From Candidatus Woesearchaeota archaeon (GTDB lineage Archaea > Nanobdellota > Nanobdellia > Pacearchaeales > GW2011-AR1): a stretch of DNA of 64,000 nt. Each line of letters opens with the position of its first letter. Position 1 is the first letter of the stretch. Both the position numbers and the translations under genes were made by a program. Shown piece after piece: positions 5,348 to 11,121 of this stretch. The notes under the pieces were generated by a model. It was not told the DNA's origin. It searched no databases and saw only the letters and a program-made list of their open reading frames with translations. The stretch is taken from positions 8,267 to 72,266 of the forward strand of contig CAYITD010000005.1 of NCBI GenBank assembly GCA_964366325.1. The letters are read 5' to 3'.

Positions 5348-5434
5348 CTTGCCTCTTTTATATTTTATTAGAGCAAATGAATTATTTAAATCTGTTGAGT
5401 TCGCAAAATTTAAATTTTTATATATTTTACAAAA

Positions 5435-6235
5435 TTATTTTTTATCTTCTAGAATTTTGTAAACTGAAACTCGGTCTGGATACCAAATAAGAAACTCAAA
5501 ATCTCCTTGTTCATTCATCCTTGATAGTGGCATGCCTAAATGCCCAGATTTTACACGCCCTACAACCAAAGGGTTGTCTGGATCAAAGGTATTATCCTTA
5601 TGATTTAGAATATAATTTTGGTAGAGTGTTAGATAATCTTGATCTAGGTCTATACGTCCTGTTGAATTAGAGTAAAATACAATCTCGGCTGGATTTTCAC
5701 CTTTATCAACTATAGGCAGAGAGCCATATTCTTTAAAACTTGCTTTTCCAACTTCTACTAAATTAAAACTTGGGCTTCTAATTAGTTTATGCCATTTGGT
5801 TGGATGTCTTGTTTTATATTTTTCATCTCTTGTTTCATAAACTTGGCTAACCTTATTTTCCTTATGATTCCCTTTTTGGATATCGCTAAAAATACCTAAT
5901 GACCCAGCACCTATTAATATAAGTGCAATTAGACCTCCCAATAATCCTGAACCTTCTGAACTCCCAGCAGAACTACTAGATGAGAAAGTTATAGGGGAAC
6001 TTGAATCTTCACTATCATCGCTGGTTGATTGTCTAGAACTTTCGTTTTTTGTTTGCCTGTGATTTTCACCATAAGTATATCCTTTATCAAATAGAACATC
6101 ATAGTCTGTCATAAGAGATTTAATCTGAATGTCCTGAGCAATGTCTCTTCCAAAATTTCCTTCTAAGCCGGCCTTAACACCTGCCTCATAAATTTCATCA
6201 TTTCTTGTTTTTACCATTTTGATTATCCTACTCAA
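5435..6235 (-). CDS. hypothetical single-pass membrane protein with Ser-rich linker
   Basis: 266-aa ORF; SSSSSAGSSEGS linker followed by TM LLGGLIALILIGAGSLGIF. Confidence 0.4.
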   Translation of the reverse strand: MSRIIKMVKTRNDEIYEAGVKAGLEGNFGRDIAQDIQIKSLMTDYDVLFDKGYTYGENHRQTKNESSRQSTSDDSEDSSSPITFSSSSSAGSSEGSGLLGGLIALILIGAGSLGIFSDIQKGNHKENKVSQVYETRDEKYKTRHPTKWHKLIRSPSFNLVEVGKASFKEYGSLPIVDKGENPAEIVFYSNSTGRIDLDQDYLTLYQNYILNHKDNTFDPDNPLVVGRVKSGHLGMPLSRMNEQGDFEFLIWYPDRVSVYKILEDKK

Positions 6236-6365
6236 ACCTTTACAATTTGAATCCTACTTATCTGAACGCTGACGACAATACACGTGAAACTTGGTTTCCC
6301 GGCAACTTCCATTCTCACGAATGAAAGTGATTCTAACCTTACAGGTGAATCCTGTAAAACATGAA

Positions 6366-6448
6366 CGCCAAGGACAGGATTCGAACCTGTGCTCCCAGAG
6401 GGAATCGGTTTTCAAGACCGACGCTTTGGACCACTCAGCCACCTTGGC
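6366..6448 (-). tRNA. tRNA-Ser (UGA anticodon), long variable arm
   Basis: Minus-strand GCCAAGG..CCTTGGC acceptor, anticodon loop CTTGAAA, long variable arm, T-arm ACAGGTTCGAATCCTGT; TATA-like CTTTATAAG about 25-30 nt upstream. Confidence 0.9.
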
Positions 6449-6546
6449 ATATGGAACAAAATTAATAATGACTTATAAAGCTTTAGAATTTGCTATTTTA
6501 CTGACTGTTTGTTCTATTAATAAGATTACAAAAGTCTTTAGGGATT

Positions 6547-6795
6547 AAAAATAAAAATCCTAAACACAGCAAGCTGTGGGGCATTTTTAAGCCTCAAACT
6601 GAGACTGTCGAAACAAGCTGCAGAGTGTTAAACTCAGTTCGAACAATAAAGAAATTTCCTAAACCTTCGCTATCCCCACAGCAAGCTGATGGAGTATTAC
6701 GCTCGGTTTCTAGATGGAAATTTCTAATTGCCAAATTGACGGCACAGCTCTGCTGTGGTGTATTGAACCCAATTTGACAATAAAAAAATAAATTT
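6547..6795 (+). repeat. intergenic hairpin repeat family, composite four-module copy (copy B)
   Basis: Four hairpin+tail modules; 25-nt core ATTTTTAAGCCTCAAACTGAGACTG at 6583-6607; collinear with copies D/E (first half) and copy F (second half). Confidence 0.75.
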
Positions 6796-7078
6796 ATCCG
6801 AAAAGAGCACTAAGACCTGCCGCGCTTTCACTTGGCTTTTCTTCTTCTTTCTTCTCAACTTTCTTTGCGTCTGCTGGAGCAGCTGCAGGAGCTGAAGCCA
6901 TGATACTTGCGTTTTCAAGTTCTTTAGAGATATCAACACCGTGTAGACTTGCTACTAAAACTTTTATTTTAGATTCGTCTGGATGTGTTCCTGTTGCTGA
7001 GATAACTTTCTTTAGGCTGTCTTCATTTACAGGATGCCCTAACTTATGCAAAAGCAAAGCTGCGTATATATATTCCAT
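6794..7078 (-). CDS. rpl12: 50S ribosomal stalk protein P1 (L12)
   Basis: [11 protein letters not shown].. N-domain, Ala/Pro/Lys/Glu hinge, conserved tail AAGLSALFG. Confidence 0.95.
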
Positions 7079-7546
7079 TTATTTTGTCCTCCTTTCATCG
7101 TAATGGTGAACATAAAAGCGATTTGATAAAGCCTGACCTGTAGATGATGTTGCGTCCAATAGTTCAACCATTAGATGCGGGACAACTTGTAACCCTCTAT
7201 CTACTCTTAAACCTTGGGTTCTAAGCGTTGATTTAATTGCCTCATATCCACCACATAGCGTTCTATAAAATCTGTCCAACTCTCTTCGTGCTTGAAATAA
7301 GTCTCCTTTATCTGCTTGGCGTTGAATACTTTCAACTTGTCTGCTGAAATAGTCCATGTCCACACCAATTGCACTAAAATCTATTGCTAATCCAAGGTCT
7401 ATCATTTCACCCATTTGTTTTGGACTCAACTCATTGAAATGTCCATCCCTTATGTTTCTATCTAACGCTCTACTTCTTAATTCTAAAGTTTCTTCATCTA
7501 AATCTTGTTCTTCAACTTGAAGCATTTTCACTTCCTCCAGAGGCAT
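7079..7546 (-). CDS. hypothetical protein embedded in the stalk operon
   Basis: 155-aa ORF; its start overlaps the P0 3' end by 35 nt and its TAA abuts the P1 ATG (TAAATG); no motif recognised. Confidence 0.5.
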   Translation of the reverse strand: MPLEEVKMLQVEEQDLDEETLELRSRALDRNIRDGHFNELSPKQMGEMIDLGLAIDFSAIGVDMDYFSRQVESIQRQADKGDLFQARRELDRFYRTLCGGYEAIKSTLRTQGLRVDRGLQVVPHLMVELLDATSSTGQALSNRFYVHHYDERRTK

Positions 7547-8330
7547 TTATTTTACTCTCCAAGACCTTCTCATGCATCGATGCTTTGGAAATTAAAAATG
7601 AGATTGTTTCTTTTGTTGCATAACCTAGATGTATTGCGAAACCGAGAGATTTTGAAATTGAGTGTTTAAGTTCATCAAATACTCCTTTCTTATCTATCTT
7701 TATTTCTTCATAAACCATGTCAGATTTTGAATCGTAGGAAAATAATGGAATGAAACCGACTTTCATAGGATTTATTTTTAATTTACTCATGACGCTTGCT
7801 ACGTTCTCTTTTATTGCTTCACCTTTCTTTACTATAGTTGCACCAATTTTAACAGCTAATTTCCCTCCTTCAACCGCTACTTTCAAACCAACAGAGGATA
7901 ATTCTGAAATTGCTGGACCTGGAATCAACTCTGTAGGGCCAGATTCAACATTGATATCTTCAGGAGCAATATCTCCTGCTTTAGCTTTTGTAGAACTTTG
8001 ACTTTCCGTAAGCAATGCAGATAATTCGAAAGTGTCTATATCTGAGAATATTAAAGCGCAATCTGATTTAACTTTTTCCTTGAATTGCTGCAACATGCCT
8101 TTCTCTGATAAAGTTATTGCTCTTAAAAGAATTGATTTTTTAATTACCATAATATCAGCACGACCTCTTAAATCACTCTTAATTTTTTGAAACTGTGAAG
8201 CTGGAAGACCTTTTGTTGAAGCCACTAAAATAGTTCTGCTATGTTTTAACTTTTTTAATATTTCATCTACCTGCGCCTTTTTAAATTCTGGAACGGGCTT
8301 TATTCTTTCTTTTGGAGATTGTTTTTTCAT
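7512..8330 (-). CDS. rpl10: 50S ribosomal stalk protein P0 (L10), short form without C-terminal tail
   Basis: PEFKKAQVDEILKKL..ILVASTKGLPASQFQKIKSDLR typical P0 N-domain; ends ..INASGGSENASS. Confidence 0.9.
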   Translation of the reverse strand: MKKQSPKERIKPVPEFKKAQVDEILKKLKHSRTILVASTKGLPASQFQKIKSDLRGRADIMVIKKSILLRAITLSEKGMLQQFKEKVKSDCALIFSDIDTFELSALLTESQSSTKAKAGDIAPEDINVESGPTELIPGPAISELSSVGLKVAVEGGKLAVKIGATIVKKGEAIKENVASVMSKLKINPMKVGFIPLFSYDSKSDMVYEEIKIDKKGVFDELKHSISKSLGFAIHLGYATKETISFLISKASMHEKVLESKINASGGSENASS

Positions 8331-8947
8331 TATATTACCTCGATCTTTATCGGTTTACTCATCGTGAGCTTTATCATTACATTTCTTACATTTTCTCTTT
8401 TCTTAGGCAAAGCGTTTTCTATTGCTTTATAGACAGCCAAGATATTTTCTTCTATATCTGCGTCTTTTGATGTTTCTTTTCCTACTATTAATTTCAAACT
8501 TGCTTCCTTTAATCTTATCTTAAGAGATTTTGATATTTTGTCTAAACTTTCCTTTATGTTTTTATCATCCTCGTGCATAATAACTCCTAATTGAGGAGAC
8601 GGCATTTTTCCTGCTGGTCCTAGAATTTTACCAAAAACAGTTGCAACCTTTCCCATTAATGGAGCGCTTGCAATAAAATAGTCGTATCTCTTTACTAGAT
8701 TTTTCAATTCTTTTTTATCTTTATATCTTTGAAATTCAGGCTCTGTGATTGTTTCAACAAGAGTTGATTTCTTTGTAAGAAAACCGCAAACTTTTTTTTC
8801 TTTGAATTTATGAGGAAGAGTAACTACTGTGTTTACTTGGTCTCTCTTTGGATCTATTTTTTTAAGATTTACAATTAAATCTATGCTTTGATCAAACTTT
8901 TTCTTCTCTAAGCTTCTTAATTCTTTTAGTGCTTCTTGAATCTTCAT
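8330..8947 (-). CDS. rpl1: 50S ribosomal protein L1
   Basis: KFDQSIDLIVNLK.., LGPAGKMPSP; position in L11-L1-P0-P1 order; 1-nt overlap with P0 start. Confidence 0.9.
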   Translation of the reverse strand: MKIQEALKELRSLEKKKFDQSIDLIVNLKKIDPKRDQVNTVVTLPHKFKEKKVCGFLTKKSTLVETITEPEFQRYKDKKELKNLVKRYDYFIASAPLMGKVATVFGKILGPAGKMPSPQLGVIMHEDDKNIKESLDKISKSLKIRLKEASLKLIVGKETSKDADIEENILAVYKAIENALPKKRENVRNVMIKLTMSKPIKIEVI

Positions 8948-9884: not shown

Positions 9885-10640
9885 TTATTTCTTCTTGGCG
9901 TCTTTTTTAGCAGGCTCTTTCTTTGCAGGTTCTTTTTTACCTGCTTCTTTCTTAGCATCTGGAGCCGCGGTTCCTGCGGCTGGAGCTCCTGCGACAGGCG
10001 TTGCTCCTGGAGCTGTTGTTCCTGCAACTGTTGCTTCTGCAGCTTTGGCAGCTTCTTCAGCGGCTTTGGCTTCTTCAGCAGCTTTCTTCTTCTTTTCTTG
10101 TTCTGATTTGATTTTTGCGAAATATTCATCAAGAACTTTTTTCTTTTCAAGAGAAGGTTGAGTTCTTTCTTCGTTAATTTCTGAGTCATATACTCCAGAA
10201 TCTATTTCTATTTCTATTTCCTGAGGAGTTTTGCTTTCTACTAAAACACCCATTGAAACGCAGGTACCAACTACTAATTTAAGTGCTGCCTTCAATGTTC
10301 TTGTAGGTAATGAAGATTGTTTTGCTTTAGCTACACCTATTAAAGTTTCTATTGAAGAATTAGCAATTCTTACCCTATTAGGTTCTCCTGAGCCTTTTTC
10401 TAAACCTAATTCTTTCTTTATCATTTCAGCAACAGGTGGAGAAAATACTTCTATTTTGTAAGTTTTAGTTTTAGAATCAACGTCTATTTCTATAGGAACT
10501 TTAACTCCTCTGAAACCCTCTGTTTTTTTATTTACATCCTCTATAAGTTTACTTAAATTAATCCCCATTGGACCTAGCTGTTGAGCTACTGCTGGACCTG
10601 GTTTCATAGAACCGCCATCAACTATAAATTTCACTTTCAT
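9885..10640 (-). CDS. rpl11: 50S ribosomal protein L11 with long Ala/Lys/Glu/Pro-rich C-terminal extension
   Basis: MKVKFIVDGGSMKPGPAVAQQLGPMGINL, VFSPPVAEMIKKE; start set to ATG 10640; about 90 extra C-terminal residues. Confidence 0.9.
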   Translation of the reverse strand: MKVKFIVDGGSMKPGPAVAQQLGPMGINLSKLIEDVNKKTEGFRGVKVPIEIDVDSKTKTYKIEVFSPPVAEMIKKELGLEKGSGEPNRVRIANSSIETLIGVAKAKQSSLPTRTLKAALKLVVGTCVSMGVLVESKTPQEIEIEIDSGVYDSEINEERTQPSLEKKKVLDEYFAKIKSEQEKKKKAAEEAKAAEEAAKAAEATVAGTTAPGATPVAGAPAAGTAAPDAKKEAGKKEPAKKEPAKKDAKKK

Positions 10641-11121
10641 CTTCGTTCTCCGTATTTTGTTGCTCTTCAGCCTCTTTTTCTTCTTTTTCACGCCTTATAA
10701 CCTTTACGTTATCTATCTTTACAGTAACTGGGATAGGTACTGAAGCTCCAAGCAAGGAAACTACAGCTTCTCCCTTCTGTTTATCTAAACGAGTTACTTT
10801 TGCTCTTTCTCCTTTGAAGGTTTGTCCTATGATCTCGACGATATCTCCTACTTCGATATTTATTTCTTCAATCTTAGGTTCTAACATGCTTTGTATTTCA
10901 GCATATTCTAGAGTTTTTCCTATAATGCCTTTTACATATGGTAAATTAAATGCTGCTTCTTCAGCTGAATCTCTGTCAAGTGCTTCAAGAATAACGTACC
11001 CTTTAAGACCATGAGGTTTAACCAAGGAGAAAACATTTAGAGATTTCTTTCTTGCTCTCTGTGCTATCATTTCTATAGCTTTTTCTTCTTTATTCGTCGT
11101 TACTTTTATGATAAATATCAT
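10618..11121 (-). CDS. nusG: transcription elongation factor Spt5/NusG
   Basis: NGN-like N-domain, KOW region GDIVEIIGQTFKGERAKV; directly upstream of L11 with 23-nt overlap. Confidence 0.85.
   Translation of the reverse strand: MIFIIKVTTNKEEKAIEMIAQRARKKSLNVFSLVKPHGLKGYVILEALDRDSAEEAAFNLPYVKGIIGKTLEYAEIQSMLEPKIEEINIEVGDIVEIIGQTFKGERAKVTRLDKQKGEAVVSLLGASVPIPVTVKIDNVKVIRREKEEKEAEEQQNTENEDESEIYS

Follow-up and report, generated by a model that had tools for sequence, protein, structure and literature searches.

Few gene adjacencies in archaea are as stable as that of P0 and P1. In the operon 'life-cycle' view, reportedly put forward by Price, Arkin & Alm in 2006, lineage-specific ORFan genes are inserted into existing operons. 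Both bear on an open reading frame (ORF) that separates the P0 and P1 genes of the ribosomal stalk in a 64,000-nucleotide (nt) stretch of contig CAYITD010000005.1; this whole stretch is hereafter called the window, and its host is a Pacearchaeota-type DPANN archaeon. Its reading frame, codon usage and junctions mark the ORF as a real protein-coding gene within an operon of the order L1-P0-ORF-P1. Its product seems, on balance, to be a dispensable, lineage-specific accessory protein carried as a passenger of the ribosomal operon, and not a core subunit of the stalk. The parts of the operon on which the comparison depends are the following.

8330..8947, minus strand: ribosomal protein L1 gene, first cistron (Pfam Ribosomal_L1, E 5.8e-33)
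7512..8330, minus strand: gene of stalk protein P0 (uL10), 272 amino acids (aa) (Pfam L10 and RL10P_insert)
7534..7538, minus strand: GGAGG Shine-Dalgarno-like site within the last P0 codons, 8 nt before ATG 7525 (read from the sequence)
7079..7546, minus strand: ORF between P0 and P1, 155 aa from ATG 7546 or 148 aa from ATG 7525
7088..7093, minus strand: AGGAGG Shine-Dalgarno site for P1 within the last ORF codons, 9 nt before the P1 ATG (read from the sequence)
6794..7078, minus strand: gene of stalk protein P1, 94 aa, with the canonical ...GLSALFG tail (Pfam Ribosomal_60s)

The locus agrees with the canonical archaeal L1-P0-P1 operon and the P0(P1)2(P1)2(P1)2 complex of P. horikoshii (3A1Y) in gene order, flanks and P1 tail, but differs in holding an extra cistron between P0 and P1 that is dissimilar to both. 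The four genes lie end to end as one tight unit in the order L1-P0-ORF-P1. The TAA of L1 and the ATG of P0 overlap by 1 nt (TAATG), and the ORF stop (TAA 7081-7079) is followed immediately by the P1 ATG (7078-7076). An earlier note on this DNA had placed the ORF at 7079-7546, with a 35-nt overlap with P0 (counted from ATG 7546) and TAAATG at P1, and the ORF list and the sequence both bear this out. The P0 frame closes at 7512, with more stops beyond. The ORF and P1 share one reading frame (7076-7081) with the TAA as sole separator, and read-through would give an ORF-P1 fusion; the shared frame is probably a coincidence, since TAATG in relatives puts both genes in different frames.

The chance of 148 open codons at the regional base composition was 5e-6. 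On a codon table drawn from the same genome, the in-frame score of the ORF was +0.286 per codon, and the two other phases scored -0.75 and -0.88. The reference scores were 0.345 +/- 0.065 for the genome's long genes, 0.39 for P0, 0.46 for P1 and 0.34 for L1. A second Hainich groundwater contig (L037), near-identical to that of the window, carried an identical ORF, and the well from which near-identical contigs come is H51; the two contigs differed by one mismatch in 1548 nt, located in P1, which leaves no power for pN/pS. The ORF looks native and not recently imported, because its GC content at third codon positions (GC3) equals that of the genome (0.25 vs 0.24). Its overall GC content (37.6%) was higher than that of P0 (33.6%) and lower than that of P1 (41%); the earlier description of the ORF as less AT-rich than its surroundings holds, though the effect is mild. 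The GC excess sits at codon position 1 (0.52 vs 0.42) because Arg, Asp, Glu and Leu are plentiful in the protein and Lys is sparse. Arginine (10.8%, against 3.9% in the proteome), aspartate (9.5%) and glutamate (8.1%) were abundant as had been remarked before, and lysine was scarce (2.7%, against 8.7% in the proteome), but histidine, also said to be enriched, was ordinary (2.7%).

Thirty related loci, anchored on P0 and P1, were read, and a species was counted where both genes lay on one contig. Of the 19 other species in the genus, 14 have an ORF of 70-133 aa that fills the P0-P1 gap (the slot), one of them with two such ORFs. A slot ORF was absent from all nine outgroup loci of other sampled genera (0/9), where P0 abuts P1 or has an acidic extension. 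Slot occupants of the genus were less than 25% identical to one another. In a tree of L1 plus P0, the ORF-bearing loci fell within the genus clade (support 99/95), and empty slots were nested among occupied ones (L020 with L010, L016 with L014, and the pair L012+L013); the simplest history of the slot gene within the genus would be a single gain with three or more clean losses after it. A profile of slot ORFs added members at the P0-P1 junction in three other genera of the family (L050, L061, L063), and the members of the slot family are labelled Pacearchaeota or Nanoarchaeota by their sources. The earlier view of the gene as lineage-specific is supported. The conservation among relatives that the same note proposed to check was absent by sequence but present as a positional counterpart in most.

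The junctions are similar across these species. Slot ORFs of relatives overlap the P0 stop by 4-11 nt, as ATGA in 8 species and by 8-11 nt in others, and in L011 the slot ORF starts 1 nt after the P0 stop. A purine-rich, GGAGG-like sequence lies just 5' of the slot-ORF ATG in nearly all relatives. The slot-ORF stop overlaps the P1 ATG by 1 nt (TAATG or TGATG) in 12 of 14 species, and the last codons of most relatives' slot ORFs, right before the P1 ATG, are purine-rich and of GAGG/GGA type (KEEA, KEGQ, GGNA). For the window ORF, ATG 7525 appears likelier than ATG 7546 to be the real start because GGAGG lies 8 nt upstream, because the public gene call (P0001, 148 aa) begins there, and because the resulting 14-nt overlap with P0 is nearer to the overlaps of the relatives.

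This arrangement invites comparison with overlapping unidirectional gene pairs (Huber et al. 2019, PMC6728339; Huber et al. 2023, PMC10666635). In reporter experiments in H. volcanii and E. coli, such overlaps (-4, -1) led to termination-reinitiation coupling (PMC6728339), and an untranslated spacer of about 20 nt almost eliminated that coupling (PMC10666635). As in those systems (PMC6728339, PMC10666635), stop and start overlap or abut, here at both ends of the ORF, on an archaeal polycistronic mRNA whose neighbouring genes encode subunits of one complex. The window differs in that its overlaps are -14 or -35 and 0 and not the classic -4 and -1, that the middle gene is no known subunit of its neighbours' complex, and that coupling at this locus is predicted from gene anatomy.

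Pairwise links between slot ORFs were found for L018-L021 (E 1e-27), L009-L019 (E 3e-11) and L015-L017a (E 6e-6), and weaker ones for L005-L006 (E 3e-4) and L009-L021 (E 0.002); the L015/L017a subfamily had no significant similarity to the motif-bearing slot ORFs. Most slot ORFs have in common the motif G-[DN]-[FY]-x2-A-x2-I-N-D-x2-Y at the start of the second helix. Linked in this way, the slot ORFs make up a loose family with a TPR/MIT-like motif, which in the present reading of the alignment resembles the TPR-type helix-turn-helix packing motif. A Pfam scan of 14 members gave no MIT match, and no curated family matched consistently. The UVR motif (PF02151) was considered as the identity of the family and rejected; the L049 ORF alone approached it, below threshold (18.5 vs 21.5 bits, E 0.0017), and neither the window ORF nor any of the 14 alignment members matched PF02151. 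A sequence search of the PDB with the family profile returned designed helical bundles and similar entries only (E 0.036 or worse). Net charge ranged from -17 to +5 and isoelectric point (pI) from 4.2 to 9.6 across members, and this spread in charge argues against a conserved binding surface or contact with rRNA.

The slot-ORF profile was also searched in the sampled genomes of the order and family. Genome G013 has a 108-aa member between L1 and P0 (L051:1465-1791, plus strand) in addition to one between P0 and P1, and its stalk operon thus holds two slot genes. Genome G174 has a 97-aa member between L32e and L19e (L049:1468-1761, minus strand), with an overlap at either end, 8 nt long with L32e and 14 nt long with L19e. 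Other members (L047, L048, L062) occur in non-ribosomal settings. Away from the stalk operon, genome G200 has a tandem array of three overlapping small helical family ORFs (L048:673-1809, plus strand), followed by a 245-aa ORF with HERAH, which matches the HExxH pattern. Genome G223 has, likewise away from the stalk operon, a 154-aa protein with the family motif twice (L062:1438-1902, minus strand).

The window ORF was modelled with AlphaFold2 (AF2) and aligned to the slot family, which divides it into the following parts.

7358..7525, minus strand: N-terminal ~56 residues, helical and poorly predicted (AF2, block pLDDT 53-81)
7085..7357, minus strand: C-terminal domain, residues 57-147 of the 148-aa form, a predicted three-helix bundle (AF2)
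7265..7309, minus strand: motif KGDLFQARRELDRFY (residues 73-87), placed on the family motif by three methods (MAFFT, hmmsearch and hhalign; none significant)

The ORF has the position of a slot-family member: it lies between P0 and P1, its start overlaps the P0 stop and its stop abuts the P1 start. With 148 or 155 aa it falls outside the family size range of 70-133 aa and is 40-80 residues above a typical slot ORF. The three methods all align window residues ~68-144 to the family, none of them with statistical significance. The window stretch A-D-K-G-D-L-F-Q-A-R-R-E-L-D-R-F-Y, set against the family form A-x(3-5)-G-[DN]-[FYL]-x2-A-x2-[IV]-N-[DN]-x2-Y, has the G, D, aromatic residue, A and Y, with E-L at the I-N pair and a spacing off by one. 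The window ORF probably descends from the slot family, much diverged. A frameshifted slot-family member was rejected, as the weak profile match arises in the actual frame only. A fusion of two units such as that in L062 is unsupported, as the N-terminal half matches neither the family nor the ORF's own C-terminal half.

Model confidence (pLDDT) increased from 54 with the single sequence to 76.5 with the slot-ORF alignment. Helices were predicted at residues 57-72, 76-103 and 114-147, with block pLDDT of 84-94 (residues 61-100) and 78-89 (residues 121-148). In VIA-align the C-terminal model was closest to the MIT-like domain of katanin p60 (5LB7_B; Z 9.8, rmsd 2.2, 78 aligned), and it superposes on the MIT domains of 5LB7, NRBF-2 (2CRB), MITD1 (4A5X) and ULK3 (4WZX) with Z of 9.8, 9.1, 7.8 and 7.7 and rmsd of 2.2-3.1; such Z values are too low to tell related from unrelated helical bundles and are common among the latter, and SNARE Habc domains and designed bundles score equally. 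Unlike MIT and TPR proteins, the ORF has no Pfam MIT (PF04212) or TPR match. Foldseek with the ORF model gave no match at E 0.001 or better, and a shape search of the Atlas returned generic helical bundles only. Structure prediction and profile comparison, both proposed in the earlier note, thus gave a predicted C-terminal three-helix bundle but no significant hhalign match.

The species of the genus are far apart (P0 55-68% identical to that of the window), and one pair, L018/L021 (P0 85% identical), was informative for selection. In this pair the slot ORF had dN 0.31, dS 0.43 and dN/dS 0.73 (bootstrap 0.42-1.3), against dN/dS of 0.095 for P0 and 0.10 for P1, and its dN was four times that of P0. 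By region, dN/dS was 0.55-0.59 in the motif and the C-terminal end and 1.1 in the middle. Both indels were in frame (4 codons each), and in neutral simulations of a divergence of this size the frame stayed open in 1.3% of trials (P 0.013). The slot ORFs of L009 and L019 were 30% identical (E 3e-11) although their synonymous sites were saturated (pS 0.8). To judge from these comparisons, the slot gene evolves close to neutrally but its frame is clearly maintained, and the sequence of its protein is weakly constrained, probably in the main for helix packing.

Searched by sequence, the ORF is an orphan. A word-indexed search of 5.8 billion proteins returned the ORF itself as sole match. HMMER against all 1.84 billion cluster representatives returned only a truncated self-copy (P0006) and P0007 (577 aa), which was rejected as a homologue, being a GC-rich tandem-repeat artefact with seven matches to one short stretch. 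No match was found by tblastn in 40 related genomes, no usable match by the ESM Atlas feature search, and no family in Pfam at E up to 1; the last result agrees with the earlier statement that the ORF has no ribosomal protein motif. The host genome held neither a paralogue nor source DNA, and in no frame did the ORF resemble P0, P1, L1 or L11. A frameshifted P0 C-terminus or a decayed P0 or P1 duplicate was rejected accordingly (no similarity in any frame, no paralogous DNA). A viral, defence or curated-family origin was also rejected; PHROGs, PADLOC, NCBIfam and phage records (tblastn) gave no match for the window ORF, and weak hits for one relative only.

If the product is a dispensable passenger protein, the anatomy suggests how the operon would accommodate it. 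Ribosomes ending P0 would restart at ATG 7525, 11 nt upstream of the P0 stop, aided by GGAGG, and those ending the ORF would come off directly at the P1 ATG (TAAATG), which has AGGAGG 9 nt before it. Such a hand-over from P0 to the ORF to P1 would explain why the insertion was tolerated and why its frame and ends were kept. The predicted product would be a small, soluble, all-helical protein with about 56 species-specific N-terminal residues and a C-terminal three-helix bundle of about 90 residues, of the simple TPR/MIT-like kind; the three-helix module, if active at all, probably acts by protein-protein binding. The ORF would be the local occupant of a slot for the gene of a small, fast-evolving helical protein, cleanly deleted several times elsewhere, and its product would ride on the strong, coupled expression of ribosomal operons. 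The case resembles the insertion of ORFans into operons in that a taxonomically restricted, fast-evolving, dispensable gene stands inside a conserved, highly expressed operon, but differs in that one junction is occupied genus-wide and in other genera, by a loose family also found at other ribosomal junctions.

Several results weigh against this account. The dN/dS derives from one pair of other species (L018/L021) and not from the window ORF. Leave-one-out hmmsearch profiles ranked the window ORF 3rd and 9th of 5268 genome ORFs, with non-significant E of 0.28 and 0.78, and hhalign of the window ORF against the family gave P 0.014-0.027 over 62 columns with a probability of 2-3%. The N-terminal 56 residues match no other slot ORF or family profile, and the gain in AF2 confidence may merely mirror a pattern of helices that the alignment supplies. 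In G001, the nearest relative (P0 68% identical), the contig breaks off at the junction, and the assembly yielded no P1. Three species of the genus have 58-67 nt of spacer before P1; in L009 and L014 it follows the slot ORF, and in L016, where the slot is empty, it follows P0. Coupling to P1 is therefore not obligatory.

A pure translational relay, in which translating the ORF matters and its product does not, and in which selection keeps the frame and overlaps that bridge the P0 stop to the P1 start after an ancestral insertion, is a serious rival, though an unlikely one. It agrees with a dN/dS indistinguishable from 1 (0.42-1.3), with both indels being in frame and with the absence of stops that neutral drift would be expected to produce (P 0.013). 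The overlaps that most species have at either end of the ORF fit it too, as does the near-abolition of coupling by an untranslated spacer of about 20 nt (PMC10666635). It does not account for the persistence of motif and similarity across saturated synonymous sites (L009-L019, E 3e-11, pS 0.8), which implies some constraint at the protein level, or for family members outside operon junctions. Moreover, P1 is served by a strong AGGAGG of its own, L009, L014 and L016 tolerate 58-67 nt of spacer in front of it, and clean deletion, evidently possible, would be a simpler fix.

A stalk-associated factor made in step with the stalk, which would bind P0 or P1 by capping a shortened P0 spine or docking on the P1 tail, is improbable. 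The idea draws on the position of the gene, which lies inside the stalk operon and overlaps its neighbours at either end, and on the recurrence of family members at ribosomal junctions (P0-P1 in four genera, L1-P0 in G013, L32e-L19e in G174). Also in its favour, MIT-like bundles bind peptides. The window P0 aligns to P. horikoshii P0 (3A1Y_G) over residues 4-253 only; two of the three spine helices that bind P1 are present in it, but in contrast to the P. horikoshii protein it has neither the third one nor the acidic C-terminal tail for factor binding. In the sampled relatives of the order (L004-L031), however, P0 ends at about the same alignment position whether or not a slot ORF is present, and some relatives' P0 add an acidic extension without an LFG-type end. 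P0 is just as short where the slot is empty; the ORF is therefore neither the cause of its shortening nor a compensation for it.

Further points tell against a stalk factor. The dN of the slot gene is about four times that of P0 and P1 (dN/dS 0.73), the genus has lost the slot gene at least three times, members differ widely in net charge (-17 to +5) and pI (4.2 to 9.6), and the L047, L048 and L062 members stand in non-ribosomal contexts. Searched for stalk-protein features (PF00428), the window ORF had no Pfam match; it shows neither the N-terminal dimerisation domain nor the acidic C-terminal hinge with a GLxxLFG-type end, its C-terminus reading ...HHYDERRTK. A complex prediction of the ORF with P0 residues 186-272 and two P1 copies scored 0.00 with controls absent, and weighs neither way. 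Beyond its genomic address, nothing positive ties the ORF protein to the stalk. The earlier note had offered a stalk-associated factor and a tolerated insertion as alternatives; given the fast evolution, the losses, the charge spread and a P0 equally short without the ORF, the former fits worse, and the latter agrees better with occupants less than 25% identical, a dN/dS of 0.73 and a slot emptied at least three times.

That the ORF is an independent, unrelated ORFan, born de novo or acquired separately in this species, which took the place of the usual slot gene or kept it out and resembles the family motif by chance, is quite improbable. The non-significant profile and hhalign matches would be expected from it, as would two exhaustive protein searches that return the ORF itself only, a length 40-80 residues above that of typical slot ORFs with a unique N-terminal part, and the case of the L015/L017a subfamily, also without significant similarity to the motif-bearing group. 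The codon usage and GC3 of the ORF are, however, entirely those of its own genome, no similarity was found to phage records or to phage, defence and NCBI family libraries, and none to P0, P1, L1 or L11 or to any paralogue or source in its own genome. Three alignment methods put the same motif at the same helix, and occupied slots in 14 of 19 species make descent with rapid divergence more parsimonious. That a non-coding spacer between P0 and P1 merely happens to be open, for which the lack of a homologue and of a known domain might speak, is hardly credible in view of the open-frame chance of 5e-6, the native, phase-specific codon usage, a start and stop that fit both neighbours exactly with Shine-Dalgarno sites, and an open frame at or over the P0 stop that fills the gap in 14 other species and ends at the P1 start in 12.

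The practical outcome for the window is modest, a real hypothetical protein without a demonstrated stalk link. For annotation, slot ORFs are to be called as genes of a taxonomically restricted family and not as frameshifted pieces of P0. The lineage is a natural test case of how new or weakly constrained genes survive in essential, translationally coupled operons, and also of whether the much-reduced ribosomes of DPANN archaea carry lineage-specific accessory proteins. It is a long shot that the slot proteins are an unrecognised accessory part of a remodelled DPANN ribosomal stalk, their MIT/TPR-like three-helix module, produced together with P0 and P1, docking on a stalk peptide such as the P1 C-terminal tail or the shortened P0 spine and tuning the recruitment of translation factors. 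If that were true, their fast evolution would be lineage-specific tuning or conflict, and the members at L1-P0 and L32e-L19e would point to a wider ribosome-linked role.

The remaining features lie on either side of the four genes.

6782..6788, minus strand: T7 run, 6 nt past the P1 stop (read from the sequence)
6365-6449: tRNA-Ser gene

Archaeal transcription is terminated by oligo-T tracts, and the T7 run is likely such a terminator and the end of the operon. Within the 119-nt spacer 5' of L1 (8948-9066, minus strand) lie a GGAGAT site and, about 80 nt upstream, a TTTAAAAA-like box; the spacer is a possible promoter and leader of the stalk operon. A 268-aa ORF at the L11 position (9885-10691, minus strand) has a long C-terminal extension rich in Ala, Pro and Lys that is like the P1 hinge. 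Compared with the near-identical Hainich contig L037 (1548-2379 there, 5398-6349 in the window), a 99.9% match ends at window position 6349, just past tRNA-Ser. Past this point L037 has about 830 nt of unrelated sequence, against about 950 nt in the window with a 266-aa ORF (5435-6235), and the match returns at 90% identity beyond the differing patch. As aligned, the patch beside the tRNA-Ser gene differs between the strains.

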